Shown piece after piece: positions 38,867-57,307 of a DNA stretch of 64,000 nucleotides. The notes under the pieces were generated by a model. It was not told the DNA's origin and did no database searches. It was given only the letters and a program-made list of their open reading frames with translations. Both the position numbers and the translations under genes were made by a program. The stretch is from Candidatus Omnitrophota bacterium (lineage in GTDB: Bacteria; Omnitrophota; Gorgyraeia; Gygaellales; Profunditerraquicolaceae), in NCBI GenBank assembly GCA_018825985.1, contig JAHKAP010000071.1, positions 7,556 to 71,555 on the forward strand, read 5' to 3'. The first letter of the stretch is position 1. Every line of letters starts with the position of its first letter.

Positions 38867-38869
38867 AAT

Positions 38870-39394: not shown

Positions 39395-39407
39395 TTTAAT
39401 TAGGGAC

Positions 39408-39837: not shown

Positions 39838-40515
39838 CTATTCTTCCTTCGGCCTGCCTACTGGCAATTGAAACAACCTTTTGTGAAGATTTTTCTCTAG
39901 CGTTTCTATAAACCCGCTTGTTCCCAAAGGACGACCGGTAAGTGTGTATTTTCTAATATTTTGTAAGATATTACCTTCTTCCGAATAATCAATATAATTT
40001 CGCCAATAGTTATAGGACATACCTGTTATTTCAAAAAAATTTTCAAACTCAAAAATCTTATCTTTTTGTTGGTTGGTATGAGCCAATGCACTCGACCATT
40101 CCCATTCCCATGGCTTTTTTACCAATCCCGCACGCACTGGGTTTCGTTCAACATAACGAACAGCTAGTATCAAATGAGCTTCATCTAAAGCGCATGAATA
40201 AAAACGGCCTTGCCATAGATGCCCGCGTTGCTGCAGTTTTTTGTTAAAATATTGCGCATATCGCATATGGGCAATATTAAATGTCTTGGCCAATGAATCA
40301 TTTTCTGCAGGAATACCCACAAAATGAACATGATTTTGCATTAAACAATAGGCTAAAATACAAAGGCCATATTGTTTGCTATATTCTTTTATCCATTCAA
40401 GGTATTGTTTCCTATCATGAACATCAGAGAAAACATCCTGTTGATAATTCCCTCTCTGGGTAATGTGATGTGGCAACCCTCTCGCTACAACTCTTGCAAT
40501 TCTAGTCATATTCAA
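39838..40515 (-). CDS. REP-associated tyrosine transposase (RAYT, IS200/IS605-like HuH Y1 transposase)
   Basis: The HuH motif is MQNHVHFV and the catalytic Tyr lies in LAVRYVERNPVRAGLV. It is flanked on both sides by REP copies in inverted orientation (39818-39839 and 40592-40612). Confidence 0.8.
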   Translation of the reverse strand: MNMTRIARVVARGLPHHITQRGNYQQDVFSDVHDRKQYLEWIKEYSKQYGLCILAYCLMQNHVHFVGIPAENDSLAKTFNIAHMRYAQYFNKKLQQRGHLWQGRFYSCALDEAHLILAVRYVERNPVRAGLVKKPWEWEWSSALAHTNQQKDKIFEFENFFEITGMSYNYWRNYIDYSEEGNILQNIRKYTLTGRPLGTSGFIETLEKNLHKRLFQLPVGRPKEE

Positions 40516-40687: not shown

Positions 40688-41611
40688 CTATTGGCCAGTT
40701 GAAACTTTCGTAGATACGCCCCAGGTCTGAGATTCTTTATAAGTATACGCGCCCTTGGATATAGGATCGAGAACTTGGCTAAGGAAATAGCTTAAATCAG
40801 AGACGAATTTTCTGGGTACAAAGACAATATCCTGGGACTGCAGAATAACGTTCTGGCGCAAATCACCCTTAAAGACCTTGGCGACATTTATCCTCTGTAT
40901 ATTGGGGGCATTAAATCCTCCCCGGATCAAAACTGTGCTGGAGGGCACGCCATCCCGGGTCAAGCCACCGGCCATAGAGATCGCTTCCATCAGGGTCCGG
41001 GCGCCGGTAACTGAATAAAGGCCGGGCGCGTTAACCTGGCCCAATATCATGACCCTGGCCCCTCCCATCTTCTTTAAAGAAATAGAAACCTCAGGATATT
41101 TAATGAAATCTTTTAGCTTTTCAGTAATAACCTCATCCAGTCCCGGGATGGTCAGGCCGGCAGCCTGGATATCTCCAACCAGAGGAAAAGAGATCTTTCC
41201 GTCAGGGCGGACAATCACATCCTGATCAAGGTCCTGATTCTGCCATACCGTAATACGCAGGTTATCGTCCTCTCCGATCAGATACTGGTTTACATTAGCC
41301 GGGGTTTGAGCCTTAATAGCTACAATCAGATCAGCTGTTTTTTCCAAGGATTGATTTTTATTATCGGAAACTGCAGGCTTAACAATAGCTTTATTCGGCT
41401 CAGGTTTTAGCGGATTAGCCAAATTCATAGCCTGATTGTATTCGTCTTCGGCATCCTTAAACTTTCCCTGTTGATAATAAAGGTTACCCCTTAAATAATG
41501 CTCCCTTATCATATCCTGGGTATCATTATACTCGGAATAAACCGGACCCCAGATTAAAACAATAAATAATACGGTTATATAAATATTATTTTTGATGAGG
41601 CGCAATGGCAT
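40688..41611 (-). CDS. Wza/GumB-like outer-membrane polysaccharide export protein (PES motif and SLBB domains)
   Basis: LRITVWQNQDLDQDVIVRPDGKISFPLVGDIQAAGLT (Poly_export) and MILGQVNAPGLYSV...LMEAISMAGGL (SLBB). The start was moved to M13 to remove the overlap. Confidence 0.75.
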   Translation of the reverse strand: MPLRLIKNNIYITVLFIVLIWGPVYSEYNDTQDMIREHYLRGNLYYQQGKFKDAEDEYNQAMNLANPLKPEPNKAIVKPAVSDNKNQSLEKTADLIVAIKAQTPANVNQYLIGEDDNLRITVWQNQDLDQDVIVRPDGKISFPLVGDIQAAGLTIPGLDEVITEKLKDFIKYPEVSISLKKMGGARVMILGQVNAPGLYSVTGARTLMEAISMAGGLTRDGVPSSTVLIRGGFNAPNIQRINVAKVFKGDLRQNVILQSQDIVFVPRKFVSDLSYFLSQVLDPISKGAYTYKESQTWGVSTKVSTGQ

Positions 41612-41612
41612 T

Positions 41613-43127
41613 TTAGTTTTGCTTATCCGATTCCAGGATGACTTCAATCTTGCGTTTCAGATCATCGGATTTCTGTTTTACTTTGGGATCAATCGCTGAA
41701 CCGGTTATGGACTGCCCGGAGGGAGAATTTCTTTCCTGAAGGGCGGCATTAAGTTTCAACACGGTAGACAGGTCATCCAGGGTTTTCCTTTGACGAGCCC
41801 TGTTTTCAGCCAGTTCTTTCTCTAGCTCAGCTGAACGCAATCTTAAGCTAGCCACCTCATCCCTTAAAGTATCCATTTCTTTTCTGCGGTCGGAGAGTTC
41901 TTTTTCTTTCGCAGCCACAAAATCAGAAAGCTGATTCACCTGCATTTTTAAACTGTTAAAAGACAGGTCGGTTTCCTGCAGCCTGGCCAGTTTAAGCTGA
42001 AGCGATTTATTTTCATCTTCAAATTTAGTCAACTGTTGGGTAAGGTAATTAAGGTTTTTCTGAAGGGAATCAGCCAGATCGTTCTTTTTAGCCAGTTCAT
42101 CTTTCATATCCCGCAGCCGGTATTGAGAAGAGACTTTTTCCGCCTCAACCTCTTTAAATTTATCCCGGTCGATCTGAGCCTCGCTTAAATTCTTCTCTAA
42201 AACAGTTATCCTGTTCTGCAGGGCGGTTATTTTAGCTATTGATTCTTTGGCCTCTTTTTTGGCCTGGTCCAGATCCAGTTCTTTCCTGGCTAAGATCTCG
42301 GATAGCCTGGTCAACTGCAAAGAGCCGTTAGCTTCGCCTGGTTCTTTGAGATTACTTGGCAGTCTGCCTGCTTTAGCCCGGGATACCTCGGATTCCAGGC
42401 TCCTGACCTGATTTTCTTTTTCAGCCAGGCTCGCCTTTAATTTATTTATATTATCAATAAAAGCCTGGGTTGCATTACCCCTGTCGCTAGTATCTTTCTT
42501 GGAAACGCCCAGCCTCACCTGTAATTCTTTATTGGCGTCCATCAAAATCACCTGGGCCTGCTTTAACTTGGCCAATTCATTTTTCTGCTTATCTATCTCA
42601 TCATCCTTTATAAGGGCAGCTTTCTCAAACTCTTCCATTTTTTTCTTTAAGGGAGAGATGAATTTCTTATCCACATTACCCAGATCATCCTTCACCCGCC
42701 TTGACTCTTCTAATATCTGGCTGAATTCCCTGGTTAGATTCTGCAGGCGGCTTGAGATACTTAAGTTTGTCTCTTGTAATGCGGATTTTTCAGTCCTTAA
42801 CCGGTCGATCTCACGGCTAAGCTGCTCGATCGTGCCCTGGGAATTACTTAAAGCAGACTTGATCCCCTGGATATCGCGCAGCTCATTCAGGCGTTTTTCT
42901 TTTTCTATCAATGATGATTTTACCTCTTCTTTTTCTTTGAGCGCTTTTTTCAATGAATCATTGAGCCTGGACCTTTCAGCCTTAAACTTAACTGAAACGG
43001 TAGAAAAAAATAAGACGAATGCTATAATGACAATTACCAGATAAACAAACTTTCCGTATTTTGACGCACGCATAGCAAGCCACAATCCAAACATTATTTT
43101 TATCCCTCTTTTAAGTATTCCAGGCAA
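41613..43127 (-). CDS. Membrane-anchored coiled-coil protein
   Basis: N-terminal TM helix (FVYLVIVIIAFVLFF) followed by about 450 aa of heptad-rich E/K/L/Q sequence. Confidence 0.5.
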   Translation of the reverse strand: MPGILKRGIKIMFGLWLAMRASKYGKFVYLVIVIIAFVLFFSTVSVKFKAERSRLNDSLKKALKEKEEVKSSLIEKEKRLNELRDIQGIKSALSNSQGTIEQLSREIDRLRTEKSALQETNLSISSRLQNLTREFSQILEESRRVKDDLGNVDKKFISPLKKKMEEFEKAALIKDDEIDKQKNELAKLKQAQVILMDANKELQVRLGVSKKDTSDRGNATQAFIDNINKLKASLAEKENQVRSLESEVSRAKAGRLPSNLKEPGEANGSLQLTRLSEILARKELDLDQAKKEAKESIAKITALQNRITVLEKNLSEAQIDRDKFKEVEAEKVSSQYRLRDMKDELAKKNDLADSLQKNLNYLTQQLTKFEDENKSLQLKLARLQETDLSFNSLKMQVNQLSDFVAAKEKELSDRRKEMDTLRDEVASLRLRSAELEKELAENRARQRKTLDDLSTVLKLNAALQERNSPSGQSITGSAIDPKVKQKSDDLKRKIEVILESDKQN

Positions 43128-44161
43128 TCTTCGATATAAAGCACTGGGTTCCCGGCCAGGTCAATCTTTTTTACTTCTTTTAAGGGTTTACCAAAAGCAT
43201 CCTGAATAATATTAACCACCGGCCTAAGAGGCAAGGCTTCATTCTCTTCTATCACTACCCCTATTTCTTTGGTATTTAAACTCACCTTTATGCCTACCGG
43301 AAAAATACCGACCCTTTCAATCAGAACCTTGATTATCCTGGAATTAAACTCACCCTTATTGTTTAAAATAACATTTATAGCCTGTAAAGGAGTATTTTTT
43401 TTCCGGTACGGACGGTCATGGATCATTGCCTCATAAACATCAGCTACTGCCAGTATTTGAGCATACTCGTTTATCTCGTTTCCTTTTAAGCCTGACGGGT
43501 AACCCGAACCGTCACAGCGCTCATGCTCCTGGCGCACCGTTTCAAGCACCTTTTGGCCTAAACCTTTACAATAATTACTTAAAATGTCCGAACCAACCGC
43601 AGGATGCTCCTTAATGATTTTAAACTCCTCAGCGCTTAACTTTTTAGGCATATTAATTATATCCATATACTTGGTTATTCCGATATCATGCAAGAGCGAT
43701 GCGTTGCCGAGTTCAATTAATTGCGGCTTATCATAACCTAACCCCATGCCTAAATCTAAGGAAATAATAGAGGAATTTAATACATGATAAAAGAGATAAT
43801 CTTCGGGAATGGGATAATCATAAAGACACTGCCGTAAAAGTTCTTTGCGAACCCGATTCCGGGCCAGGATAGCGTTTATCCTTTCTAACAGGCTCTCAAT
43901 TCCCGGATCAATACTAAAAGACTTACCCAGGTCCGCGCTATATATCTGTTTAATCTTAGCTAATACCTCTTCGTAAAGAATATGGCTGTCCTCAATCTTT
44001 TCTTCCGGAACATCCTTATTCAATACCGAAGCTATATTTACCTCCTGAATCGGTTCCTTTTTAGGAGGCGGAATTTCTTTAGGGCCTGGATCATTAACCA
44101 TCCGGGCTTCTTTAGCTTTTTCCTCTTTGTTCTTTTTCAGGATATCGGATAAATTGAACAT
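43100..44161 (-). CDS. HD-GYP domain c-di-GMP phosphodiesterase
   Basis: HDIGITKY (HD), KEHPAVGSDIL, HERCDGSGYPSGLKG (the HHExxDGxGYP motif). Confidence 0.8.
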   Translation of the reverse strand: MFNLSDILKKNKEEKAKEARMVNDPGPKEIPPPKKEPIQEVNIASVLNKDVPEEKIEDSHILYEEVLAKIKQIYSADLGKSFSIDPGIESLLERINAILARNRVRKELLRQCLYDYPIPEDYLFYHVLNSSIISLDLGMGLGYDKPQLIELGNASLLHDIGITKYMDIINMPKKLSAEEFKIIKEHPAVGSDILSNYCKGLGQKVLETVRQEHERCDGSGYPSGLKGNEINEYAQILAVADVYEAMIHDRPYRKKNTPLQAINVILNNKGEFNSRIIKVLIERVGIFPVGIKVSLNTKEIGVVIEENEALPLRPVVNIIQDAFGKPLKEVKKIDLAGNPVLYIEDCLEYLKEG

Positions 44162-44162
44162 T

Positions 44163-45038
44163 TTATATATCTAATTTCTTACCCTGCCCGTCGGAATAAG
44201 CAGATGGGGTTGAAGAAGTGGGAACATCGGATTCCGAGTATTTCAAGTCTTCGGTTATCTTTACAATGGTTTTTCTATCAATTATCTTTAAACCGCTGCC
44301 GAAACCGATTAATAAAGCCAAATCACAAACAGTATTGATCTTACGAGGGGTGCCGCTGGCAGCCAGATATATTTCTCTAAAACAATCGTCTTCAAATACC
44401 GGCCGGGTTGAACCAGCCACCTCTAAACGATGAAGGATATATTCCCTGGTCTCAAACTCATCCAGCTTGGTCAAATGGTATTTGACCGCCATCCTTTGGG
44501 TCAACTGGGGAAGGTTAGCGATTACGCTTTTTAATTCAGGCTGGCCGATCATGATGATAGTCAGAAGAAACGCGTTATCCAGCTGAAAATTCAGGAGCAG
44601 TCTTAATTCCTCAAAAATATCGGTCCCTTGTATGGCCTGGGCTTCATCAATGACTATAACGGTGTGCTTATCGACGTTAAAATTGGAGTAAAATATCTTA
44701 TGCAGTTGATGAAACAATTCAACCTTGGAATCGCTGACCTGGCCTCCGGTCAGTTGATGAGTAATCTCCTGTATAAATTCTAAGGCGGTTAAACGGGGAT
44801 TAAGAATAAAAACCGCGTGGTAGCGGTTTTCCTGCTGTAACTCATGCCAGAGGACCCGGCTTAAAAGGGTTTTTCCGCTGCCGAATTCTCCGGTCAAAAG
44901 AGCGGCGCCTTTATGTTCCCTGACCACATACAAAAGCCTGGCCAGCGCCTCCTTGTGTTTCTGGGAATAATAAATAAAACGCGGGTCCGGCGTATTCTCA
45001 AAAGGCTTTTCTTTTAATCCCCAAAAGTCCTCATACAT
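44163..45038 (-). CDS. ExeA/GspA-like AAA+ ATPase (module 1)
   Basis: MYEDFWGLKEKPFENTPDPRFIYYSQKHKEALARLLYVV...LLTGEFGSGKTLLSR. The N-terminal ExeA signature and the Walker A motif are both present. Confidence 0.85.
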   Translation of the reverse strand: MYEDFWGLKEKPFENTPDPRFIYYSQKHKEALARLLYVVREHKGAALLTGEFGSGKTLLSRVLWHELQQENRYHAVFILNPRLTALEFIQEITHQLTGGQVSDSKVELFHQLHKIFYSNFNVDKHTVIVIDEAQAIQGTDIFEELRLLLNFQLDNAFLLTIIMIGQPELKSVIANLPQLTQRMAVKYHLTKLDEFETREYILHRLEVAGSTRPVFEDDCFREIYLAASGTPRKINTVCDLALLIGFGSGLKIIDRKTIVKITEDLKYSESDVPTSSTPSAYSDGQGKKLDI

Positions 45039-45043
45039 ACTTT

Positions 45044-45646
45044 TTATTTAGCGGGAGCGGAAACAAGCGCTTTTTTGCTTACAGCGACGAATGAAAAATC
45101 CTTAGTGGTCTTTTCATCAATGTGATAGCTAAGCATGCCTTTCATATTCTGGGCATCAGCGCTGACCTCTCCCCGCCAGAAAACTACTGTAGCCGGGGAT
45201 TTTTCAGAAGTCTGCATGGTCTCCCACACTGCCGAGCCATCAGGCTGGGGGCTTAAGGTATAATTAGTGGGAGGAAAATGCAAGCCGATATAACCCGACA
45301 CAGAGATCTGATTATTCCTTAAGACCAGTATTTCGGTCTCTTTTTTCACTTTTTGCGCGGTTGTAACCGGAGTCAATTCCAGGATCCACTCGGTATTATT
45401 CAATTCCGCGCGCATCTTATCGATTAAGGCCTTCCGGGCATTGATCAACTCAACCTGAGCTTTATTATCCGCTTTTTTTACCGCATCAGGCGCTCTGACC
45501 GGCTCTGCTTTTTTTACTTCGGCCTGAATTGTTGGCGCTACTTTTACCGGTTCTTCTTTCTTCTTTCCCCACCAGCTAGCTTCGGCAATCGGTAAATTAA
45601 CCATTAATAACCCAACCACTAATGACCCTATTACGAACTTCATCAT
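45044..45646 (-). CDS. Hypothetical secreted protein
   Basis: Signal peptide MMKFVIGSLVVGLLMVNLPIAEA. No recognisable domain. Confidence 0.35.
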   Translation of the reverse strand: MMKFVIGSLVVGLLMVNLPIAEASWWGKKKEEPVKVAPTIQAEVKKAEPVRAPDAVKKADNKAQVELINARKALIDKMRAELNNTEWILELTPVTTAQKVKKETEILVLRNNQISVSGYIGLHFPPTNYTLSPQPDGSAVWETMQTSEKSPATVVFWRGEVSADAQNMKGMLSYHIDEKTTKDFSFVAVSKKALVSAPAK

Positions 45647-45663
45647 CTCCCTCCTCCTATTTT

Positions 45664-46623
45664 TTAATCAACCGGTTTCTTCCCTTCCCAGGTCTGCCAG
45701 GTAAGAATATACTTCTTTACCCAGTCGACATCTTTATCTTCAGCTTTAGCTAATTTTAGAAACTTACGGAAATTCTCAATAGCCTTAGGCCTGTTGCCTA
45801 AATACTCGGCATAAATATAACCCAGGTTATAATGAGAATACGGGTCATCCGGATTCAACTCAATAGCTTTTTCAAATTCAGCCGTGGCCCTAGAAAATTC
45901 TTTACTCTGAGTATAAAACACGCCCAGGTTGTAATGCATAAGCGCGGTCTCTTTTATTAAAACCTTGTTTTCGCGGGCTAATTCCGCGAATTTCGCGGGG
46001 ATCTGAGCGATCTTTTGTTCTAAAGACCGGTTTTTTGCCAGCGCGCCTTCATAAAGCTTCTTGGAATCGTTTAATTGCCGTCGATAGATCTCAACCTGGG
46101 CATAAGCGTCCAGCTTTTGTTCATCCAAAAGTTTTACTTTCTGCTCCAGTATTTTAAAACGCCGGATTAAATCGGTATTTTCTTTTTGGAGATCAGCTAT
46201 CTTCTTGCGCGTTTCAGGAACTATTCTATACTCAATTTTGATTTTTTCAAGAGAATTCTTTAGGTTTTCTTTCTCCTGAACCAATTGAGCCTGAGCACTT
46301 TCCAACTCTTCGAGCCTCTGTTGTAAAAGCGCGCTCTGTTCAAGCCTGGCCTGAAGTTCCTTCTGCAACCTATCCTTTTCTATTTGAACCTTACGGTCAT
46401 CAGCCTCCTTATTGTCAAATTTGTTCTTATATTCATAGAGGTTTTTGATCTGGATCAAAAGATTATCCCGGTCAGCGACTACCTCCTGGTTTTGATTTTT
46501 CAGGTCCTCATATTTTTTCTCCCAGCTCTCCTGGGCTAATGCTGTATTAATAATAGAAAAGGTAAAGGTAGAGGTATAGGTAAAGATAAATACAAAAAAT
46601 ATTCTGTTAAAGATCTTTTTCAT
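45664..46623 (-). CDS. Secreted coiled-coil protein with C-terminal TPR domain (short paralogue of the giant 48656-52348 protein)
   Basis: Signal peptide, about 200 aa of coiled coil, and a C-terminal LMHYNLGVFYTQSKEFSRATAEFEKAIELNPDDPYSHYNLGYIYAEY...YILTWQTWE that is homologous to the C-terminus of the 1230-aa protein. Confidence 0.5.
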   Translation of the reverse strand: MKKIFNRIFFVFIFTYTSTFTFSIINTALAQESWEKKYEDLKNQNQEVVADRDNLLIQIKNLYEYKNKFDNKEADDRKVQIEKDRLQKELQARLEQSALLQQRLEELESAQAQLVQEKENLKNSLEKIKIEYRIVPETRKKIADLQKENTDLIRRFKILEQKVKLLDEQKLDAYAQVEIYRRQLNDSKKLYEGALAKNRSLEQKIAQIPAKFAELARENKVLIKETALMHYNLGVFYTQSKEFSRATAEFEKAIELNPDDPYSHYNLGYIYAEYLGNRPKAIENFRKFLKLAKAEDKDVDWVKKYILTWQTWEGKKPVD

Positions 46624-48422: not shown

Positions 48423-48650
48423 CTATATGCCCACCAACTTTTTACGGATCAACACAAGAGGATAACCTTCGCTCGTAAGCGCGGATATCTTCTTAATGGA
48501 TTTATCCACCTGCTCCCGCTTATAAAAACGGATATTACTCTTTTTAAAAGCTATCCTTAACAAACCCACGCTGGTATATCGATTTATGGTCTGATAAGAA
48601 ATACGGTACTTTTTTTCTATATCTTTCGCGTCAATATATTTATTATTCAT
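48423..48650 (-). CDS. Small excisionase/MerR-type HTH DNA-binding protein (module 1)
   Basis: 75 aa. ISYQTINRYTSVGLLRIAFKKSNIRFYKREQV fits the HTH_17/excisionase pattern. It is a paralogue of 57047-57307. Confidence 0.5.
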   Translation of the reverse strand: MNNKYIDAKDIEKKYRISYQTINRYTSVGLLRIAFKKSNIRFYKREQVDKSIKKISALTSEGYPLVLIRKKLVGI

Positions 48651-48655
48651 CTTTT

Positions 48656-51600
48656 CTATTTCTGGTCAAAAGTCTCCCAGGTAACAATATACTTTCTTAC
48701 TTTTTCAGCATCCCCGTCTTTAGGCGAAATCACTAAATATTTCTTAAAATAATTAAGGGCCTTAGGCCTATCGTTTAAGTATTCGCCGTAAATCACACCC
48801 AGGTTATAGAGGCTTTCCGCGTCATTCTCCTTTACCTCCAGGACCTTCTCAAATTCAGCGATCGCCCTCTGATATTCCTGATTTTGGGTATATAAAACTC
48901 CCAGGTTATAATGCAAAGTCGCATTCTCCTGAGGCAATTTGCTATACCTCTTTTTAAGGTTCCGGTTCTGGTCGTTTAGCGATTTATACTTTTCTTCCAT
49001 TTGTATATAATCATGCTTCAGCTTAATAAACTCCTCCTGCATCGATTTAACTTGTCCTTCAAGCTCCTGTTTTCCTTTTACCTTCTGCTGATAATCCTGG
49101 TTCTGTTTGCTGTATTCCTGGCTTTTTAATATCAAGGCCTGCTGGGCGGCCTCGGATTCCCTGAATCTCTTTTCTGTCTGCTCTAAGGTATCCTGGAGCT
49201 TCTCTTTCACGGCCACCAAATCCAAATATTGCTGCCTTAAATTAGTAGTCTTCTGGGAACCATTAACATATTCATCCTTTAAAAACGCGTTCTGCTGGAC
49301 TAATTTTTTATTTTCATCCTCCAGCATGATCTTTTGGCTTTCCAAACCCTTGAGCTGCTCAGTGATCTGCTTTTGCTGAGACTGAAAAGATTCTTTATCC
49401 TGGGTCAATTGCTTAATCAAATCCTGAGAGAATTCAATGTCTTTCTGCAGTTTAGCGATCCTTTCATTTAAAACCTGGTTTTCGGAATCTCTCTGGGATT
49501 TCAGCTGAGCCAATTGGACGCTCGCCTGGCTGTATTGTTCTTTTAATTGTATACTCAGCGCTGAGGACTCCTCATATTGTTTATTGACTTTCAGGTACTG
49601 ATCCTTAGTCTGACTCATCCCGCCTTCAGTTTTAGCCAATTGCTGACGCAATTGCTCGGATTCCCTATCCTGCTCATAAAGTTTAGCTGAAAGTTCCTGC
49701 TTCTGCTGACTCAAGCTGGATACCTGATTTTGCAAGGAATTGATACTTTCATTAAGCTTAGAAAAGTCGCGTTCCAGATTCTGACTTTTAAGGGTCGCAG
49801 TTTGAGAATCTCTCTCCAGGCTGTTTTTCTGATTAGTTAACTCCTTAACCCTATTATTAAGCTGAGCCTGCTGACTAAGCAGGTTATCTTTATCAACAGT
49901 TAATTGCCGGGATAGATCCTGGAAGAATTTTACATCATTTAAAGCCCGGCCGGATTTCTCCATAATAACAGCCAACTCTTTATCCTTATCCAGTTTTAGC
50001 TGATTTAACTGAGTTTCTTTTTCAGTTCGGAACTTTATCAAGGCATCCTCATAAAGGTTAAGCCTGGCTTTTTGATCCGAGAGGTCCTTATTTAAAGACT
50101 TTACTTGGTCTTCAGACTTCTTTTTCGATTCCTGGCTAGAATTCAATAATTGGGTGATCTGCTCAAGCTGGGACTGGGAAGCCTTAAGGGCGTCATTGAG
50201 TTTAGAGCGCTCAGCGTCAAGAGACTGTTCCTTGGCTAAGAGCGATTGATTCTGTTTACTGAGCTGGTTGAATTCAGCGTCTTTCTGGGCCTTAAGCTCA
50301 GTGAGTTCTTTTTCTTTCTGGGATTTAAGCTGAGTGAATTGGTCATTTGCCAGGGCGAGCTCTTTCTCCTTCTGAGATTTTAAATCTAAGAGGTCCTTCT
50401 CTTTCTGGCTGGCCAAGGCGCTTAGCTCTTTATCTTTCTGGGATTTAAGCTGAGTGAGCTGGTTACTTAAATTATCCAGTTGTTTCTTAAGGTTAGCGGA
50501 TTCATTTATTGCGCTGGATTTAGTCTCATCAACCTTGGCTAACTGTTTACTGATCTGCTCAAGCTGGGACTGGGAAGCCTTAAGGGCGTCATTGAGTTTA
50601 GAGCGCTCCGCGTCAAGAGACTGTTCCTTGGCTAAGAGCGATTGGTTCTGTTTACTGAGCTGGTTGAATTCAGCGTCTTTCTGGGCCTTAAGCTCAGAGA
50701 GTTCTTTTTCTTTCTGGGCCTGAAACTTTTCCAGTTGCGAATCTTTTTGAGTCTTAAGATTAGCCAGTGTATTCTGGTAAATATTTAGGTTATCCTTAGC
50801 CTCCTGGTACTGTTTTTTCAAAACATTATAATCATTCTGGGCCAGGGTGAGCGCGTCCTGAGAAACTTGAGTATCTCTCTGCAGAGCAGCAACCTTATCT
50901 TTAAGGCTGATTAGTTCCGGCTCCTTTGAATTTTTATATAATGTAAATTGTTCATTCAATTTAGCTAATTCAGCGTCTTTTTGGGATTTTATCTGTTCGG
51001 CCTGGCCGCTTACCCTATCCAGATCTTTCTCTCTCTGAGCCTTAAGTTGAGTGAACTGGGAAGTCAAATCATCAATCTGCTTAAGCAGACGGCTATTATC
51101 TTCTTTTAAGCGGGCTGAATCTTGTTTCAGTTGAACAGCCTCTTGATCTTTCTTGGACTTGGCCTGATTTATTGCTTCTTCTTTTTGGCGGTCATAATCC
51201 GACAATAGAGCGTGTAATTGAACCAGCTGGCCGTCTAATACCGTTAATTCATCTTCTTTCTGAGCTTTGATCGCTTCGATATCTTTATCTTTTTGAGCTT
51301 TCGATTGAACAAACTGAACATTCAGCTCATTCAACTGTTGTTTTAAACGGGAATTTTCTCCTAAGGCCTGAGCCTGATACGCCTCTAACCCGGAAACCTT
51401 TTGTTTAACCTGCTCAAACTGCTGCTGGGTATTACGCAGCTGTTCTTCTAATGGCTGGTATTTTTTATTTAAATCTTGATTCTCCCGCTCTAAAGATATC
51501 TTTTGCTCATAAAGGGAGTTTGATTGTTCATTTAATTTATAATATTCTTTTTTAAGCTTTTCATATTCCTCGCTAATCTTAGGGTCGGATTGTTTACTTT

Positions 51601-52348
51601 TTTCTGCCAATTTGGCATTCTTCGATTCCAATTCTTTAGCAATCTTATTCTTTGTCTCCTCAACATTTGCCAAGTCACTAAGGGCCTGCTGAAGAGTATC
51701 GTTGAGCTCCTTGCCCTGTTTATCCAGATCGCTTACCTGGGCGAGCAGCCTCTGCTTCTCCTGGTCTGACTGAGCTAATTCCTTATTTAACTGCTTTAGT
51801 TTCTGGTCGCTTTGGGCATTCAGATCCTCATACCTTCCGGTTAGCTCATCCTGCTGCTTCCTGAGTTTATTCAATTCCTCGCGCATTTGATCAAGCTGCT
51901 TCTGACGCTCCTGAAGTTGTTTGGTAAAATCTTCGGCCTTGCCGGCAGATTCCTGATCAACCCTAACATTAGCTAACTGTTCAGAAAGAGTGGCATATTC
52001 ATTCTGGAGGTTCTGGCGCTCTCGCTCGATCGCTTGTTTATCTTTTTCCAAAGCTAGCCTCTGGGCATGCAATTCTTTCAATTGGGAGGATAATTGTTTC
52101 TGTTGAGCTTCAAGAACCTCCTTCTCCCCGATCAATTGCCGGTTTAGTTCTTTAGACGTCCGAAGGTCTTTTTCCAGCTGATTGGTTTTAGCGCCTTGAG
52201 CCTCCTGTTTAGAAACCTGGCCTGAAGTATCAGTCTGGGCAAAAGCCTGCCTGCCAGCAGGTAATCCAACCTGTTGGAATATTAAACCGATAAAAACGAA
52301 TAGCCGGATAAAATTCTGAATAAGTAAATCGCGCATTTTTTTCCTCAT
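48656..52348 (-). CDS. Giant secreted coiled-coil protein (1230 aa) with internal tandem repeats and C-terminal TPR domain
   Basis: N-terminal signal/anchor, then more than 1100 aa of Q/K/E/L-rich heptads with repeated QLKSQKEKEL and SLLAKEQSLDAERSKLNDALKASQSQLEQI blocks. The C-terminus is TPR-like (NLGVLYTQNQEYQRAIAEFEKVLE...YIVTWETF). Confidence 0.6.
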   Translation of the reverse strand: MRKKMRDLLIQNFIRLFVFIGLIFQQVGLPAGRQAFAQTDTSGQVSKQEAQGAKTNQLEKDLRTSKELNRQLIGEKEVLEAQQKQLSSQLKELHAQRLALEKDKQAIERERQNLQNEYATLSEQLANVRVDQESAGKAEDFTKQLQERQKQLDQMREELNKLRKQQDELTGRYEDLNAQSDQKLKQLNKELAQSDQEKQRLLAQVSDLDKQGKELNDTLQQALSDLANVEETKNKIAKELESKNAKLAEKSKQSDPKISEEYEKLKKEYYKLNEQSNSLYEQKISLERENQDLNKKYQPLEEQLRNTQQQFEQVKQKVSGLEAYQAQALGENSRLKQQLNELNVQFVQSKAQKDKDIEAIKAQKEDELTVLDGQLVQLHALLSDYDRQKEEAINQAKSKKDQEAVQLKQDSARLKEDNSRLLKQIDDLTSQFTQLKAQREKDLDRVSGQAEQIKSQKDAELAKLNEQFTLYKNSKEPELISLKDKVAALQRDTQVSQDALTLAQNDYNVLKKQYQEAKDNLNIYQNTLANLKTQKDSQLEKFQAQKEKELSELKAQKDAEFNQLSKQNQSLLAKEQSLDAERSKLNDALKASQSQLEQISKQLAKVDETKSSAINESANLKKQLDNLSNQLTQLKSQKDKELSALASQKEKDLLDLKSQKEKELALANDQFTQLKSQKEKELTELKAQKDAEFNQLSKQNQSLLAKEQSLDAERSKLNDALKASQSQLEQITQLLNSSQESKKKSEDQVKSLNKDLSDQKARLNLYEDALIKFRTEKETQLNQLKLDKDKELAVIMEKSGRALNDVKFFQDLSRQLTVDKDNLLSQQAQLNNRVKELTNQKNSLERDSQTATLKSQNLERDFSKLNESINSLQNQVSSLSQQKQELSAKLYEQDRESEQLRQQLAKTEGGMSQTKDQYLKVNKQYEESSALSIQLKEQYSQASVQLAQLKSQRDSENQVLNERIAKLQKDIEFSQDLIKQLTQDKESFQSQQKQITEQLKGLESQKIMLEDENKKLVQQNAFLKDEYVNGSQKTTNLRQQYLDLVAVKEKLQDTLEQTEKRFRESEAAQQALILKSQEYSKQNQDYQQKVKGKQELEGQVKSMQEEFIKLKHDYIQMEEKYKSLNDQNRNLKKRYSKLPQENATLHYNLGVLYTQNQEYQRAIAEFEKVLEVKENDAESLYNLGVIYGEYLNDRPKALNYFKKYLVISPKDGDAEKVRKYIVTWETFDQK
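50156..50719. repeat. Intragenic near-identical tandem repeat (about 168 bp, period 396 bp) within the giant coiled-coil gene
   Basis: gatctgctcaagctgggactgggaagccttaagggcgtcattgag...ttctttttctttctggg occurs at 50156-50323 and 50552-50719 with about 3 mismatches. Confidence 0.85.
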
Positions 52349-52386
52349 AAATACTCCGTTTTTTGAAATATTAAAAGTATACTTAT

Positions 52387-52469
52387 CACGGATTACCGCG
52401 GATTATTTCACGGATTTACACGGATATATCCGTGCCTATCCGCTATTTTGATCCGTGTTTATCCGTGCC
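52387..52469. promoter_or_regulatory. Mirrored array of CACGGAT / ATCCGTG motifs (4 + 4) in the putative promoter region of the giant coiled-coil operon
   Basis: tcacggatta ccgcggatta tttcacggat ttacacggat at|atccgtgc ctatccgcta ttttgatccgtg tttatccgtg. Confidence 0.35.
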
Positions 52470-52486
52470 ATAAAATCAATTTTAGA

Positions 52487-54304
52487 TTATCTTTTCTTCA
52501 TCCCCTTTACCGTTAGAGCATTTTTGCCAGCCGGAATAAAAACTTTTGAAGCTGGATCCGGTTTCTCCTGAATTTCGATCTCTTTAAAATCCAAGTCTTT
52601 ATATTCCTTTATGTTTTTGATAGATTCCTTATCTGTTCCCTTACCACTGACGCCGGTAACCAGATAATCGCCGCTGATTATTTTAGGGGTGAGTAAAATC
52701 AACAACTCAGTCGTGTCCTTATCATGCGACCTGACTTTGAACAAATTCCCCAGGAAAGGAATACTTCCTAAGAAAGGCGTTTGTTGCGAACTGCTCGTCT
52801 CCTGTTCCTTACGCAATCCGCCGATAACTATAGTCGAACCATCCTTTACCATAACTGTAGTCTCCGCCAAAGAAGTATCAAGAATCGGGATCTCGTTCTT
52901 AGTGGGCGTGATCAATGTATCAATAACAGAATTAACTTCGGCCTTTACTTTCAAAGTAATAAAACCCTCATCATTAATATTAGGAACAACGGAAAGCAAA
53001 ACCCCGGTATCAATAAAATTAACCTGTTCGGCAACGGTATTTGGGCCAGTGCTGCCGGTAGTCGTAGTAGTAGTGACATAGGCATCTTTAGTCCCGACGT
53101 GGATCTTAGCCTCCTGGTTATTAACCACTACTAATTTAGGGCTGGAAAGGATTTTAGTATCTCCCAAAGTAAGTATATATTTAAAGATCACATCAAAATC
53201 CTGTTTACCTACATTACCGATATGCAACTCCTGGGCGCCGATACTCTGTTTGCCTGCCGCATAATTCGAAGCTGTCCCGGTAAAAGGGTACGAACCGGCA
53301 CCAGTGGAATTAGCCCAGACTGTACTCCTGGAGCGCCAGGCATCAGTCGCGGCTTGCACCGCGCTAAACGGATACGCGCCCACATAAGACATACCGTATT
53401 TCCTGGCTACATCAAATATACCCTCCCACTGCGTGCCGACACTTCCTCCGCGGGATAATTTGATTTGGATCACCCGGGTATCGATCATGACTTCTTTAGT
53501 CTGCCGGTCAAGGCCCCTTACCAATTCCTCGACCTGTTTCATCCTCTCAGGCAAAGTTTGAATAATGATATTATTGCCCCGGTCGTCCGATTTGACCAGG
53601 CCTACCCTCTTCCCATCCAGCTGAAATTTAATGGTATCTTCTATGTCTTTAGCCCTGGCGTAATTTATTCTAATGATTTTAACTATATTATTTTCCTCAA
53701 ACCCCTGCATAGCCTGTTGAATTATCTCTATCCTATCCGGAGTATCTATAATCAAAACATTGCCTGATTCAGGGTCAACCAGTATCCTGCCCACTTCGCT
53801 TTTTAGGGTATCCAGAAAGCTAAAGGCCTGTTCAGGAATGGCATATTTCAATTTAAAAACCTTGACCTGGCGCACATCCGAAAAATTCTTTCCGTAAAGC
53901 GCTTTATACTCTTCCTGGGTCATAACATTATAGATATCGCCTTTTTTATCAAAAGCCAGGTTATTGCTGCGCAACATCACGTCGAAAACGTCTTTGACAA
54001 TAGCGTTTTCCACATTCAGGGTGATCCTTCCGCTAACCGACTTATTAGTGATCAGATTTACCCCGGTCTTTACTGATAAATATTTCAGGGCATCCACGAT
54101 ATCAATATTGCGCAGGTCCAGGGTAACCTTGCCTTCTATCCCTAAGCTTAAAGGGATAATCCTTGGTTCTGGAGCAGTAGCCGAAACAGCAGGAGCCGCA
54201 GGAATAGCCGCCTGGGCCAGGTTCTTAACAGCGTCTTCCTGCGCAGGTAGATTATTTACTAAAAAAATAAACACCCAAGCGTTCAGGATAAAAAACCTTT
54301 TCAC
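52487..54304 (-). CDS. Secretin (GspD/PilQ family), module 2
   Basis: IVIGGLRKEQETSSSQQTPFLGSIPFLGNLFKVRSHDKDTTELLILLTPKII. A paralogue of 46620-48422, collinear along the whole length. Confidence 0.85.
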   Translation of the reverse strand: MKRFFILNAWVFIFLVNNLPAQEDAVKNLAQAAIPAAPAVSATAPEPRIIPLSLGIEGKVTLDLRNIDIVDALKYLSVKTGVNLITNKSVSGRITLNVENAIVKDVFDVMLRSNNLAFDKKGDIYNVMTQEEYKALYGKNFSDVRQVKVFKLKYAIPEQAFSFLDTLKSEVGRILVDPESGNVLIIDTPDRIEIIQQAMQGFEENNIVKIIRINYARAKDIEDTIKFQLDGKRVGLVKSDDRGNNIIIQTLPERMKQVEELVRGLDRQTKEVMIDTRVIQIKLSRGGSVGTQWEGIFDVARKYGMSYVGAYPFSAVQAATDAWRSRSTVWANSTGAGSYPFTGTASNYAAGKQSIGAQELHIGNVGKQDFDVIFKYILTLGDTKILSSPKLVVVNNQEAKIHVGTKDAYVTTTTTTGSTGPNTVAEQVNFIDTGVLLSVVPNINDEGFITLKVKAEVNSVIDTLITPTKNEIPILDTSLAETTVMVKDGSTIVIGGLRKEQETSSSQQTPFLGSIPFLGNLFKVRSHDKDTTELLILLTPKIISGDYLVTGVSGKGTDKESIKNIKEYKDLDFKEIEIQEKPDPASKVFIPAGKNALTVKGMKKR

Positions 54305-55035
54305 TTTAATTCCATCTCCTCTTTATCGTAACTTAAAATTATCTTATCCTTAAAAACAGCCTGGACCTTGATCTCTCCGATGGACTGCCCTCTCTTAACA
54401 AAAAAAGTCCTTTTAGTGCCGGTATCTTCAATCATTACATCCGGGTCATCCGACCAAGATATGCCTACCAACTTCAGGTTTTTAGTCAATTCCACTATCT
54501 TTAACGGCTGTTTCTCTTCATCCTTTTGCATTGGTCCCATTTTAAAAATATCCCTCTGGCGTACTTTCTCAAGATAATATGATGAGGGTTTAATAGGAGA
54601 TAGTCCAGCCAGTCCTACCGGATTGGCAACCGCTGACTGAACCTTAAAATCCATTTGAGGGATTTTATTAACATTGATCATTGAAAATGAGAAATTTCCG
54701 GCAAAGTATACAGCCAGGATAAAAATCCCTAAATACATAAATCTATTAACTAACTTTATAACATCGGACTGGGATTGACCGACTTTAGACCATTTCTTAA
54801 ATTGGCCTTTAAAAAAAGAGAGCCTACCAATCCAGGCCTCTACGGAAAACAAACTAAGATTACGGTGCTGGAGAGCATAATCCTCAGCGGTCTTGGCAAT
54901 AATTTTCGGCTTAAGGCTAGACCCGTCTTCTATTATCGCCGCAGCGGGAGAAACCGCTTTTTTATTCTGCGATTCCTGCCCTTCTATAAGGCTTAATAAC
55001 TGTTTTTCTGGACTAAGGGATTTGTCTTGTGCCAT
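54301..55035 (-). CDS. Bitopic inner-membrane protein with GspC-HR/PilP-like C-terminal domain (putative secretin-interacting protein)
   Basis: One TM helix (YLGIFILAVYFAGNF). The C-terminal LKLVGISWSDDPDVMIEDTGTKRTFFVKRGQSIGEIKVQAVFKDKIILSY resembles the GspC HR/PilP domain pattern (L-x-G-I...A-I-I-E...G-x-x-I-G-x-x-x-V..I....V-L). Confidence 0.4.
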   Translation of the reverse strand: MAQDKSLSPEKQLLSLIEGQESQNKKAVSPAAAIIEDGSSLKPKIIAKTAEDYALQHRNLSLFSVEAWIGRLSFFKGQFKKWSKVGQSQSDVIKLVNRFMYLGIFILAVYFAGNFSFSMINVNKIPQMDFKVQSAVANPVGLAGLSPIKPSSYYLEKVRQRDIFKMGPMQKDEEKQPLKIVELTKNLKLVGISWSDDPDVMIEDTGTKRTFFVKRGQSIGEIKVQAVFKDKIILSYDKEEMELK

Positions 55036-55868
55036 CCTGATTTAACCTCATCATCTATAAGTTCTTTGGCCAACGCTGCGTCTACCACAAATTTATTTTG
55101 CAGCACCATATGCTTTAAGGCCTTGTGGCAAAACATGGTGATCTGGCGCGGATATCCTCGGCTGTATTGATAGATCTCCTTTATCGCCTCATCAAGAAAA
55201 ATATGCATATTTGACTTATATCCTGCCTGCCTGATCCGGAATTCTATCATCTCCCTTACTTCATCAATATCTAAAGGGTTTAAGGTATATTTAAAACTGA
55301 TCCGATCAAAAAAATTGGGCATACTGATTATTTTAGCGTGAAGTTCCAGCTGGCCCAAAAGGACAAGTTGCAGCAGTTTATATGAATTAGTCTCGTAATT
55401 AAGCAGGACTCTCAAAACCTCCATTGAGCTCTCGCTCAATTTCTGGGCCTCATCGACGATCAGGGTAACGATCTTATTTTCAGTTACGCCCTTCTGGAAA
55501 AGAAAACGCTCGAAAGACTCTCTTAGGTCCAATATATTTACCGGTTTACCCTCTAACACGGGATTATTTATTTCAAAATCCCTGGCCAGAGATGTAAGAA
55601 AAAGTTCCTCGCTTTCAAAAGTAGGATCAAGCACAATATTAAATATAAAATCATCCCGGTCCTTCAGCTCCTGGATCAATTTACGGGAGAGGGTAGTCTT
55701 GCCGGTCCCGATATCGCCCAAAATTACGCTCAAACCCCTTCTTAAGCGTAATTCTATTAAAATATTGGTCATTGCCCGCTCGTGCTCTTTTGACAGATAA
55801 AAGAACTCCGGGTCAGGACTAGTAGAAAACGGCTCTTTTTCAAAACCCAATATTTTAAAATAACTCAT
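54993..55868 (-). CDS. ExeA/GspA-like AAA+ ATPase (module 2)
   Basis: MSYFKILGFEKEPFSTSPDPEFFYLSKEHERAMTNILIE...ILGDIGTGKTTLSRKL. Confidence 0.85.
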   Translation of the reverse strand: MSYFKILGFEKEPFSTSPDPEFFYLSKEHERAMTNILIELRLRRGLSVILGDIGTGKTTLSRKLIQELKDRDDFIFNIVLDPTFESEELFLTSLARDFEINNPVLEGKPVNILDLRESFERFLFQKGVTENKIVTLIVDEAQKLSESSMEVLRVLLNYETNSYKLLQLVLLGQLELHAKIISMPNFFDRISFKYTLNPLDIDEVREMIEFRIRQAGYKSNMHIFLDEAIKEIYQYSRGYPRQITMFCHKALKHMVLQNKFVVDAALAKELIDDEVKSGWHKTNPLVQKNSY

Positions 55869-55902
55869 ATTTTTAACAAAGCGCTGAAAAAATAACTTTT
55901 GG

Positions 55903-55982
55903 CACGGATATACACGGATATAAATAACGGATCGACACGGATAATCCGCGGGAATCCGTTAATAGATCAGTGTACATCCGTG
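55903..55982. promoter_or_regulatory. Second mirrored CACGGATA / TATCCGTG-type array, upstream of the ExeA-like (module 2) gene
   Basis: ggcacggata tacacggata taaataacggatc gacacggata|atccgcgg gaatccgtt ...gtacatccgtgt. Confidence 0.35.
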
Positions 55983-56008
55983 TAAAAAATAATTTATTGA
56001 TCATCTCT

Positions 56009-57043
56009 TTAACTAATCTGCCAGACAGGACTTATCCTGGCCTCTTCTTGTAACTTCTGGATCCAAGCTCCCAGGCCTTCATATTTCTTGCGGTTTTCAA
56101 CTTTTTTATAATACCCATCCCGCACCTTTGTAAATTCATTCTCATCGGCAACCTTTTTATCCAAAATCCGGAAAACCCCGTACCCCTTGTATATCGGTGT
56201 AGGCGGATAAACAGAATAAATCTCCATTTTAATCATTTTATACAAATCTTCCGAAGGCACTTTCCACATATCTATAAGGAATTCAAAAGCCACAAATCCC
56301 AGCCGCTTGGAAAATTTAGGGTTGGATTTAGCCTCCTGATCCCAAAGAGCCGAATCTTTCATTTTACCATAAAAATCCTGGGCGCTCTTGAGGTCCTCAA
56401 ACTGCACCAATTCCAGGCCGATAGTGTTATACTCGTTTCTGAATTCCTGGCGCAATTCATCTTCACTGATCTCGGGTTTTATGCTATCCAGGACCTGCTT
56501 GCGCAACTTATCCAACTGAATAAGATGCCGCAATTGGTTTTCAAATACCTCCACCGGCTCTCTCAACTTATCACTGACCCACATCGTATAGGCGTTACGG
56601 TTCTGTTTCCAATTAAAATTAATCTTGGAATTATCCAATACCCTAGTGATCTGTTCCTCCAGTTCCTGGGGCTCAACATTAATACCCCTGCGGAATGCCT
56701 CAAAAGAAAGAAGCAATTGCTCCCATATCTGGTTCTCTAACTCTTCATCATTATTAACCGGAGTACCCCATTGATTTCCAAATACTAATATCGCGCCCTT
56801 TATAAAATTATAATTATTGGCCGGGATTTTTATCCCCCAGCCTATGAATTCGCCGGCAAAGGTATTCTCAACATTAAGCTGGGCTGCCGGTTTACTTTCA
56901 GCAGGCTTCTCTGGTTTTACTGCTACCGAAGAAGATATATTATCCTCACTCCTGCCAGTAACAGAGTTATTCTCTTGCGCAAATGCTGCGCTCTTGGTAA
57001 ATAAAATAACCAGAAATATTGCTAAAGCGGATTTGATCATCAT
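56009..57043 (-). CDS. Hypothetical secreted protein
   Basis: Signal peptide MMIKSALAIFLVILFTKSAAFA. No confident domain call. Confidence 0.35.
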   Translation of the reverse strand: MMIKSALAIFLVILFTKSAAFAQENNSVTGRSEDNISSSVAVKPEKPAESKPAAQLNVENTFAGEFIGWGIKIPANNYNFIKGAILVFGNQWGTPVNNDEELENQIWEQLLLSFEAFRRGINVEPQELEEQITRVLDNSKINFNWKQNRNAYTMWVSDKLREPVEVFENQLRHLIQLDKLRKQVLDSIKPEISEDELRQEFRNEYNTIGLELVQFEDLKSAQDFYGKMKDSALWDQEAKSNPKFSKRLGFVAFEFLIDMWKVPSEDLYKMIKMEIYSVYPPTPIYKGYGVFRILDKKVADENEFTKVRDGYYKKVENRKKYEGLGAWIQKLQEEARISPVWQIS

Positions 57044-57046
57044 AAA

Positions 57047-57307
57047 CTAAACTCCCAACAATTTCCTGCGGATCAGATATAAAGAATAACCTTCGCTGGC
57101 TAAACGGGTTATAACCGAAAGCCTTTTCCTAACCTGGCAGGAATCGTAAAAACGGATATTCCCTTTTTTAAGGGCAACTGAGAATAAACCTAGGTCGGTA
57201 TAGTGATTTACTGTCTGGTAAGATATGTGGTATTTATTGATTATTTCTTTGACTGAGATGTTCTTATGATTCTTTTGGTTTTTGGTTTTATACATTGGCA
57301 AAGGCAA
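57047..57307 (-). CDS. Small excisionase/MerR-type HTH DNA-binding protein (module 2)
   Basis: ISVKEIINKYHISYQTVNHYTDLGLFSVALKKGNIRFYDSCQV. A paralogue of 48423-48650. Confidence 0.5.
   Translation of the reverse strand: MPLPMYKTKNQKNHKNISVKEIINKYHISYQTVNHYTDLGLFSVALKKGNIRFYDSCQVRKRLSVITRLASEGYSLYLIRRKLLGV

Follow-up and report, generated by a model that had tools for sequence, protein, structure and literature searches.

A duplicated secretin operon of Candidatus Omnitrophota as the probable outer-membrane arm of a split type II secretion/type IV pilus-like machine

In the Vibrio msh operon, the genes mshL, mshM and mshN encode a secretin, an ExeA-like soluble ATPase and a tetratricopeptide repeat (TPR) protein, and Pseudomonas aeruginosa possesses in XqhA an orphan type II secretion system (T2SS) secretin. 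Every pilotin known to us is a lipoprotein. Bacteria of the phylum Omnitrophota are ultra-small and uncultured; they are regarded as predators or parasites, whose contact with prey is believed to depend on their secretion and pilus machinery. ATPase-assisted assembly of secretins is established for ExeA/ExeB-GspB (PMC4098917, PMC9239104), and pilotin-independent secretins are known (PMC6532946). In Omnitrophota, gene clusters running from gspE to gspM have been called T2SS-like in a published survey (10.1101/2023.11.21.568195) and type IVa pili (T4aP) with 'most components' present elsewhere (PMC10066038); these clusters adjoin F-type ATPase genes and giant genes (10.1101/2023.11.21.568195; PMC10066038). 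Here we analyse a 64-kb stretch of Candidatus Omnitrophota DNA (contig JAHKAP010000071.1, hereafter the window), in which an array of 14 genes at 40688-57307 encodes two secretins together with ATPases, helix-turn-helix (HTH) proteins, coiled-coil proteins, an HD-GYP protein and a Wza-type exporter. A search of the literature on secretins in Omnitrophota/Omnitrophica found no description of this locus.

We consider it probable that this region encodes the outer-membrane arm of a split T2SS- or type IV pilus (T4P)-like machine, present in duplicate and placed ahead of a Wza/Wzc/Wzy polysaccharide locus and an HD-GYP gene. The inner-membrane half would be encoded elsewhere, as a gspE-F-G-...-K-L-M operon. 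In our best reading, the locus represents an unusual layout of a known machine and not a new kind of exporter. The observations behind it are the domain identities of the proteins, their paralogy, the synteny of the array across the phylum, its contiguity with gspE-M in some lineages and the occurrence of the two complementary loci on a single contig.

The minus strand carries all genes of the window, and the array is transcribed in the order HTH2, u344, ATP2, u244, Sec2, CCTPR1230, HTH1, Sec1, CCTPR319, u200, ATP1, HD-GYP, CC504 and Wza. An initial annotation had seen two separate modules in this array, each with an orphan secretin. Its gene coordinates and domain calls were correct throughout 40688-57307, as judged from the list of open reading frames (ORFs), Pfam and NCBIfam, and the duplicated genes are indeed true paralogues: Sec1 and Sec2 are 54% identical across 495 amino acids, ATP1 and ATP2 33% identical over 253 (E 2e-33), and HTH1 and HTH2 55% identical over 74. 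It was also right that the window lacks genes for GspE, GspF and pilins, none of which was found by Pfam in all ORFs of at least 120 amino acids or by a scan with PROSITE-style motifs in all ORFs of at least 40 amino acids. The division into two modules was not upheld by the gene order of related loci, which reveals instead a single operon, kept in related genomes, within which the secretin and coiled-coil/TPR (CC-TPR) genes are duplicated.

The position of the inner-membrane genes in relatives carries most of the argument. In locus L030, genes for the ATPase, the GspC-like protein, the secretin and the CC-TPR protein are followed directly by a complete inner-membrane set, consisting of GspE (MshEN, T2SSE and PilZ domains), GspF, GspG, a second pilin, GspK, a GspL-like PilM/PilN fusion and GspM. 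In L085 and L087, the series GspE-F-G-...-K-L-M is followed by an AAA_22 ATPase gene and a GspC-like gene. In L087, where all these genes are on one strand, a MerR_1 gene lies between gspM and the ATPase gene and a secretin gene comes after the GspC-like gene; in L085, the contig edge is reached directly past the GspC-like gene. The HTH-ATPase start of the array is found about 2.8 kb downstream of gspM in L084, and a GspC-like gene and a secretin gene follow gspM in L095. Loci L084, L085, L087 and L095 came from a metagenome scan with a GspE alignment, in which the patterns were generic and most matches were to non-Omnitrophota GspE. The view that the secretins stand outside any T2SS or T4P therefore holds only in cis, since the HTH-ATPase-GspC-like-secretin genes are contiguous with gspE-M in L030, L085 and L087.

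In most Omnitrophota the two halves are apart. The GspE-PilZ protein is ubiquitous in the phylum, and its usual locus starts with a giant ORF (over 3000 amino acids where truncated at the end of the locus), followed by an F-type ATPase operon and a gene for a small protein with MshEN only; then come GspE-PilZ and GspF, in some loci sensor kinases, and after these GspG, further pilins, GspJ, GspK, GspL and GspM. These usual gspE-M loci yielded no secretin or GspC gene; the sequence extends beyond gspM in L080 and L082, stops with the PilM/N gene in the ERZ1426844 locus and breaks off before that point in L081. The ERZ1426844 contig (142,859 bp) carries both a secretin-less gspE-M operon of this kind and a dual-secretin/HD-GYP/Wza locus with the gene order of the window. 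According to the initial annotation, a complete T2SS or T4P gene set immediately outside the window would make this an ordinary pilus or secretion locus; that is not literally the situation, but its sense holds, as the partner machine lies elsewhere in such genomes.

Several features of the partner loci deserve mention in their own right. In Omnitrophota, GspE unites three domains in one chain, MshEN, T2SSE and, at the C-terminus, PilZ (L080 1-21471; L081; L082; L084; ERZ1426844). A Peptidase_MA_2 gene and sensor kinase genes are interleaved among the pseudopilin genes of gspE-M loci. Directly upstream of the complete T2SS operon of L087, at 4988-9847 of that locus, is a gene for a secreted subtilase of 1619 amino acids with FG-GAP repeats, a dockerin and Ig-like domains, and this protein is a plausible secretion substrate.

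The conservation of the array was followed in 74 loci obtained by a scan of one genome per species, with the window proteins mapped onto the ORFs of each locus by phmmer. All come from Omnitrophota metagenome-assembled genomes (MAGs) or from MAGs labelled as Planctomycetes-Verrucomicrobia-Chlamydiae (PVC) or otherwise mislabelled. Close relatives carry the whole array from HTH2 to Wza in the same order, followed by Wzc-Wzy or by a cassette resembling those for ribosomally synthesised and post-translationally modified peptides (RiPPs). More distant Omnitrophota have a single-secretin core made up of HTH, ATPase, u244, secretin, CC-TPR and u200 genes, followed by a gene for a SurA-like/cyclophilin protein, and in other lineages two secretins are present but the HD-GYP/Wza extension is absent (L036, L067, L069, L070). 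A u244 gene lies immediately before a secretin gene in 60 loci; in other cases the upstream neighbour is a CC-TPR gene (28) or an HTH gene (19). The array is a single operon kept throughout the phylum, in which the secretin and CC-TPR genes underwent an ancient tandem duplication; in the clade of the window the HTH and ATPase genes have been doubled too.

Upstream of the single-secretin loci, the ORFs encode PAS histidine kinases, and no GspE, GspF or other secretion genes were found among them. Such kinases stand directly upstream of the HTH gene in L002 (1-1976), L043 (4101-7711), L078 (3-5387) and ERZ1426844, one of them being fused to GGDEF. A single-domain response regulator is also present there in L002 and ERZ1426844, and L004 has a response regulator only. 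In the window this position is occupied by rsmA-pdxA-surA. The arrangement in these relatives suggests two-component control of the secretin locus.

The two secretins are encoded at 52487-54304 (Sec2, first position, 605 amino acids) and 46620-48422 (Sec1, second position, 600 amino acids). Both belong to the secretin superfamily, with PF00263 scores of 154.1 bits for Sec1 and 153.6 bits for Sec2 (cutoff 27.5), and both contain two Secretin_N domains and an STN/N0 domain by Pfam. No subfamily could be assigned with NCBIfam. For Sec1 and Sec2, respectively, the GspD equivalog TIGR02517 gave 226 and 223 bits (cutoff 351) and the PilQ model TIGR02515 gave 250 and 237 bits (cutoff 284), and MshL (TIGR02519) gave 168 and 165 bits (cutoff 250). 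The AlphaFold2 model of Sec1 (mean predicted local distance difference test score, pLDDT, 72.7) comprises a signal peptide, N0 at residues 50-128, ring domains at 137-196 and 198-259, a secretin barrel at 262-536 and a disordered C-terminal tail. With N0 and only two ring domains, it departs from the N0-N1-N2-N3 architecture of GspD; it also lacks AMIN domains, and the window has no pilMNOP genes. By Foldseek and phmmer, Sec1 is about equally close to GspD, ExeD, PulD, PilQ and InvG, and its closest relatives with a name are nearly all from Candidatus Omnitrophota. In a neighbour-joining tree, first- and second-position secretins form separate deep clades, Sec2 grouping with the former, which indicates that the two lineages are old and that both copies have been kept.

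Each secretin is followed by a gene for a secreted coiled-coil protein with a C-terminal TPR domain: CCTPR1230 (48656-52348; 1230 amino acids) after Sec2 and CCTPR319 (45664-46623; 319 amino acids) after Sec1. The initial annotation had seen the coiled-coil/TPR gene as peculiar to the Sec1 side; the shorter gene does lie there, but CCTPR1230 is its paralogue (37% identity over 213 amino acids, E 1e-32, closest in the C-terminal TPR part) and therefore belongs to the Sec2 side. In the 74 loci, a CC-TPR gene is adjacent to the secretin gene in 97 of the 97 cases in which a family member was detected downstream, so that it is an obligate, invariant partner of each secretin. TPR matches cover residues 226-303 of CCTPR319 and 1143-1205 of CCTPR1230, which in addition gives SMC-like coiled-coil matches.

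The length of these proteins varies from 289 to 1628 amino acids across the loci, and that of the CCTPR1230 orthologues, which is hypervariable, from about 540 to 1628. In the window, the CCTPR1230 gene contains a 177-nt segment twice (50155-50331 and 50551-50727, 96% identity) and a 45-nt motif in 13 copies. These repeats surfaced only with a seed-based search, Tandem Repeats Finder having reported none in the region, and, together with the range of lengths, they indicate that the coiled coil is still expanding and contracting. The TPR region matches PilW and Tgl models weakly, and a pilotin-like role of the TPR C-termini had been proposed in the initial annotation. We rejected a classical pilotin function of the PilF/PilW/Tgl or GspS/AspS kind, as the CC-TPR proteins are not lipoproteins: they carry Sec-type signal peptides, and a lipobox-like motif occurs in only 3 of 106 orthologues and in neither copy of the window.

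ATP2 (54993-55868) and ATP1 (44163-45038) are both cytoplasmic ExeA/GspA/MshM-like P-loop ATPases of 291 amino acids, with AAA_22 scores of 65.7 and 81.7 bits, respectively. All 15 ATP1 orthologues have both the Walker A and the DEAQ motif; of the 41 ATP2 orthologues, all have Walker A and 38 have DEAQ. Their earlier assignment to the ExeA/GspA type is correct for this P-loop part, but neither is a full-length ExeA, because both are without its transmembrane segment and its peptidoglycan-binding domain. No hydrophobic segment was found in ATP2, the only marginal stretch of ATP1 (147-165, score 1.61) is within the ATPase fold, and Pfam matched no peptidoglycan-binding domain in either protein. 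ATP2 is directly upstream of the GspC-like gene in most loci where both were detected, with one extra unannotated ORF in between in L036, L067, L069 and L070. It is missing in several close relatives; an ExeA-like ATPase was detected where the locus extends far enough upstream or downstream. ATP1 is found only in those loci of the clade that bear the HD-GYP/CC504/Wza extension. A sequence search of the PDB with ATP1 and HTH1 gave no matches.

HTH2 (57047-57307; 86 amino acids), the first gene of the operon and the presumed local regulator, and HTH1 (48423-48650; 75 amino acids), whose stop codon abuts the start of Sec1, encode minimal MerR-type DNA-binding proteins (MerR_1, 27.7 and 27.9 bits, respectively; cutoff 21.6). 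Their size leaves no room for a dimerisation helix or an effector domain, and in this they may resemble minimal MerR proteins such as BldC. A gene of this family was detected in 52 of the 74 loci, and HTH1 relatives precede the second secretin in 18. The best sigma-70-like site of the region is just upstream of HTH2 (57443-57414, 11 of 12 matches), which is weak evidence for a promoter; promoter and terminator scans of the region gave counts no higher than shuffled controls and carry little weight.

Three further genes encode envelope proteins. The product of u244 (54301-55035) is a bitopic inner-membrane protein of 244 amino acids with a single hydrophobic segment at about residues 92-110. 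The sole PDB match of its family profile (46 sequences) is 3oss_C (E 7.8e-4), the homology region (HR) domain of GspC of enterotoxigenic Escherichia coli in complex with GspD, which fits a GspC-HR-like domain at its C-terminus and agrees with the initial annotation of the protein as GspC-HR-like. In addition, u244 matches the NCBIfam family GspC_delta (E 0.0025), and the L087 orthologue matches Pfam T2SSC at E 2.4e-4 (21.4 bits, cutoff 27). It is thus predicted to be GspC-like and to link the inner membrane to the secretin N0 domain. The secreted protein u344 (56009-57043; 344 amino acids) has an N-terminal hydrophobic signal, its family profile matches the N-domain of the SurA chaperone 2pv3 weakly (E 0.011), and a distant homologue of 492 amino acids in L078 ends in a cyclophilin peptidyl-prolyl isomerase domain (Pro_isomerase, 175 bits). 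Present in 39 of the 74 loci, it is probably a SurA-N-like periplasmic chaperone. The secreted protein u200 (45044-45646; 200 amino acids), an Omnitrophota-specific accessory, is modelled (pLDDT 82) with a soluble 8-stranded beta-barrel that follows a signal peptide, a linker and a single helix; a fold search returned generic 8-stranded barrels only and no informative structural neighbour.

We envisage the following mechanism. The minimal MerR-type proteins would probably regulate the operon. A cytoplasmic ExeA/GspA/MshM-like ATPase and the bitopic GspC-like protein would form the inner-membrane side, the HR domain of u244 docking on the N0 domain of a GspD/PilQ-type secretin. The ATPase could act in assembly or anchoring of the secretin, and the SurA-like chaperone, the u200 beta-barrel and the dedicated CC-TPR protein may help in secretin assembly or in envelope anchoring. 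Judging from the layout, the cell probably expresses secretion and the export of surface polysaccharide together and controls both by cyclic di-GMP (c-di-GMP), because an HD-GYP gene is in the locus and MshEN and PilZ domains are on the partner GspE. The link to capsule genes, conserved in one clade only, may reflect co-regulation. Candidate substrates are large secreted hydrolases or factors linked to giant surface proteins.

Some observations speak against this picture. The presence of gspE-M in the organism of the window itself is inferred from relatives, and contiguity with gspE-M was seen in a few loci only, of which L085, L087 and L095 have no assigned taxonomy. Both secretins score below the NCBIfam cutoffs for GspD and PilQ, and the GspC assignment has weak E-values, of about 1e-3 to 1e-4. 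The roles of the CC-TPR proteins, u200, CC504 and the ATPases are putative. Finally, Sec1 has no GspC-like gene of its own and is tied to ATP1, HD-GYP, CC504 and Wza, and it may have another role.

This last point leads to the capsule-linked end of the array. The HD-GYP protein (43100-44161), which has no receiver domain, shows HD_5 and HD matches of 97.5 and 53.6 bits in Pfam, and all 20 orthologues keep the HD motif and 19 of them DGxGYP, features that place it in the c-di-GMP phosphodiesterase family by sequence. CC504 (41613-43127) is a bitopic protein of 504 amino acids with an N-terminal transmembrane segment (residues 21-39) followed by about 460 residues of coiled coil; its only other matches are of coiled-coil type, and it is kept between HD-GYP and Wza in 19 loci. 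The Wza-type outer-membrane polysaccharide export (OPX) protein (40688-41647) has an N-terminal TPR (residues 49-77), one Poly_export domain (83.9 bits) and one SLBB domain (SLBB_2, 49.8 bits), both domains above their cutoffs. Only about 40 residues follow the SLBB domain, and the protein appears to be a truncated OPX without the outer-membrane helix.

The strongest competitor, to which we give a minor share of belief, is a division of labour between the secretins. Sec2 and the GspC-like protein would serve the T2SS/T4P-like machine, and Sec1, together with HTH1, CCTPR319, u200, ATP1, HD-GYP, CC504 and the apparently truncated Wza, would have been recruited to a capsule-linked job, one possibility being that Sec1 is an outer-membrane conduit or anchor for polysaccharide or a coat fibre. 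The linkage of the secretin genes to Wza and HD-GYP, pointed out in the initial annotation, is conserved, in one Omnitrophota clade: the ATP1/HD-GYP/CC504/Wza block occurs in 17-21 of the 74 loci and solely downstream of the second secretin. Both old secretin lineages have been retained. Truncated OPX proteins require a separate outer-membrane channel (PMC9603273), and Pfam found no beta-barrel porin family in the 40-kb exopolysaccharide (EPS) locus of the window. However, second-position secretins also exist without any Wza, in the lineages of L036, L067, L069 and L070, and no known secretin exports polysaccharide. The porin could be encoded elsewhere, as illustrated by a ShlB/POTRA barrel in the ERZ1426844 locus, and co-transcription may merely reflect co-regulation. 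A bolder form of the proposal seems to us rather improbable, namely that the Sec1 lineage is no longer a T2SS pore and has become a c-di-GMP-controlled outer-membrane exit or anchor for capsule or a coiled-coil coat, in place of a Wzp-type porin.

Still less credible is an autonomous exporter, which comes near the view of the initial annotation and in which ATPase, bitopic protein and secretin would suffice by themselves, like the pI/pXI-pIV proteins of filamentous phages, and would export the CC-TPR proteins as surface fibres without GspE, GspF or pseudopilins. The window and most related loci are devoid of E, F and pilin genes within 10 kb, and ATP1 has a weak match to Zot (E 0.0047). The proteins to be exported would be those encoded without exception after the secretin, provided with Sec signals and recent internal repeats, and in their longest forms far exceeding the width of the periplasm. 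Against this scenario, the HTH-ATPase-GspC-like-secretin genes sit inside complete T2SS operons, a gspE-M operon lacking secretin and GspC is found on the same contig in ERZ1426844, and the ATPases have no membrane segment by which to couple to the envelope. Kinship with a PEP-CTERM/exosortase EPS locus of the XrtA type, raised in the initial annotation and suggested by the best NCBIfam matches of the ATPases (TIGR03015) and Wza (TIGR03027), was rejected as effectively refuted for the window, since the scores are far below the curated cutoffs (ATP1 232 and ATP2 185 versus 324.5 bits; Wza 123 versus 180 bits), no exosortase domain was found by Pfam in ORFs of at least 120 amino acids, as had been noted before, nor any PEP-CTERM-like C-terminus in ORFs of at least 50, and the ATPase is associated across the phylum with the GspC-like gene and the secretin gene instead of Wza.

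The array is embedded between housekeeping and polysaccharide genes. From the upstream end, HTH2 is preceded by secDF, a short mfd-like gene, surA, pdxA and rsmA. The Mfd-like protein (60203-62107) has only 634 amino acids, about half of canonical Mfd, with UvrB-interaction, CarD/TRCF-RID, DEAD and Helicase_C domains, and the same form of 634-637 amino acids is present in L001 and L077. Downstream of Wza are a Y1-transposase-like gene, the RiPP-like cassette, Wzc, Wzy, Wzx and about 25 glycosyltransferase, methyltransferase and acyltransferase genes. The first of these (39838-40515), a Y1_Tnp/REP-associated tyrosine-transposase-like gene, is right after Wza, and Y1_Tnp-domain ORFs of 221-446 amino acids recur in the secretion locus of unrelated genomes (L078 13916-15223; L095 9124-9789): in several loci they follow u200, and in L095 one separates the GspC-like gene from the secretin gene. 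Such an ORF is a candidate for an element targeting the locus or for a domesticated component.

The RiPP-like cassette between Wza and Wzc (32868-39813) comprises genes for an S24-like peptidase, PqqD, a 67-amino-acid ORF (a possible precursor), a radical-SAM/SPASM enzyme, an HprK/ScmC-like kinase, a second radical-SAM enzyme, an ABC exporter and NTP_transf_5. Behind Wza, L022, L064 and the ERZ1426844 contig have a comparable cassette and L004 has parts of one, which suggests that it is a conserved component of the super-locus. The polysaccharide locus (268-30615) is unusually large and rich in methyltransferases, with at least nine methyltransferase genes (two of FkbM type), about 11 glycosyltransferases, GT87-like and PMT_2-like membrane glycosyltransferases, MBOAT, a radical-SAM/SPASM enzyme, WbqC and PIG-L. 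Beside MBOAT, the ORF at 22376-23476 has no Pfam match and looks, by eye only, like an AlgJ/SGNH-type partner. A gene of the PD-(D/E)XK nuclease superfamily (8470-8871; PDDEXK_3, 121.8 bits) is located among the glycosyltransferase genes.

If the window is read as the outer-membrane arm of a split machine, the gspE-M cluster already reported next to giant and F-type ATPase genes, which in the loci examined is without pore and GspC, would have its missing outer-membrane half in a separate locus conserved across the phylum. The unusual accessories fixed in this locus are a minimal MerR-type protein, a soluble ExeA-like ATPase, one invariant CC-TPR partner per secretin and a small beta-barrel protein. 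The reading would correct calls of 'orphan secretin' and 'incomplete T4P/T2SS' in genome surveys and would define a candidate set of secretin assembly factors without a lipoprotein pilotin. It would also tie an ancient secretin duplication to a capsule locus and to c-di-GMP turnover, and may point to a coupling of secretion with production of the surface coat.

Among described systems, the T2SS proteins GspD/GspC with GspA/GspB (ExeA/ExeB, OutB; PMC4098917, PMC9239104, PMC6532946) share with the locus a secretin that has N0 and ring domains, next to it a bitopic protein with a (here predicted) HR domain, and an accompanying ExeA/GspA-type P-loop ATPase, and some relatives have these genes contiguous with gspE-M. 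In contrast to the T2SS, these genes stand apart from gspE-M in most Omnitrophota, the secretin is duplicated, has only two ring domains after N0, lacks an S-domain and lipoprotein pilotin and falls below the GspD equivalog cutoff, and the ATPase is without ExeA's transmembrane segment and peptidoglycan-binding domain. A MerR-type gene, an invariant CC-TPR partner, u200 and a SurA-like protein are added. The mannose-sensitive haemagglutinin (MSHA) pilus system likewise combines a secretin, a soluble ExeA-like ATPase of about 280 amino acids and a TPR protein, with a partner ATPase bearing the c-di-GMP-binding MshEN domain. It differs in gene order, the MshL model is not reached, the TPR protein of Omnitrophota has a long coiled coil, and the partner operon contains GspG-, J-, K- and M-type genes, with no MSHA pilin seen.

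The orphan secretin XqhA, and PilQ with its TPR pilotins PilF/PilW/Tgl, resemble the locus in a secretin located away from its machine and in genetic coupling of a TPR protein, respectively. In Omnitrophota, however, the orphan state is a phylum-wide rule, the secretin keeps the GspC-like gene beside it, its TPR partners are not lipoproteins and it has no AMIN domains. Wzx/Wzy-dependent export with a truncated OPX protein (PMC9603273) has its counterpart in the short Wza and in Wzc, Wzy and Wzx, encoded downstream in the same direction. The locus differs from it in that no Wzp-type porin was identified in the window, and in that two secretins, an HD-GYP protein and coiled-coil proteins are encoded directly upstream.

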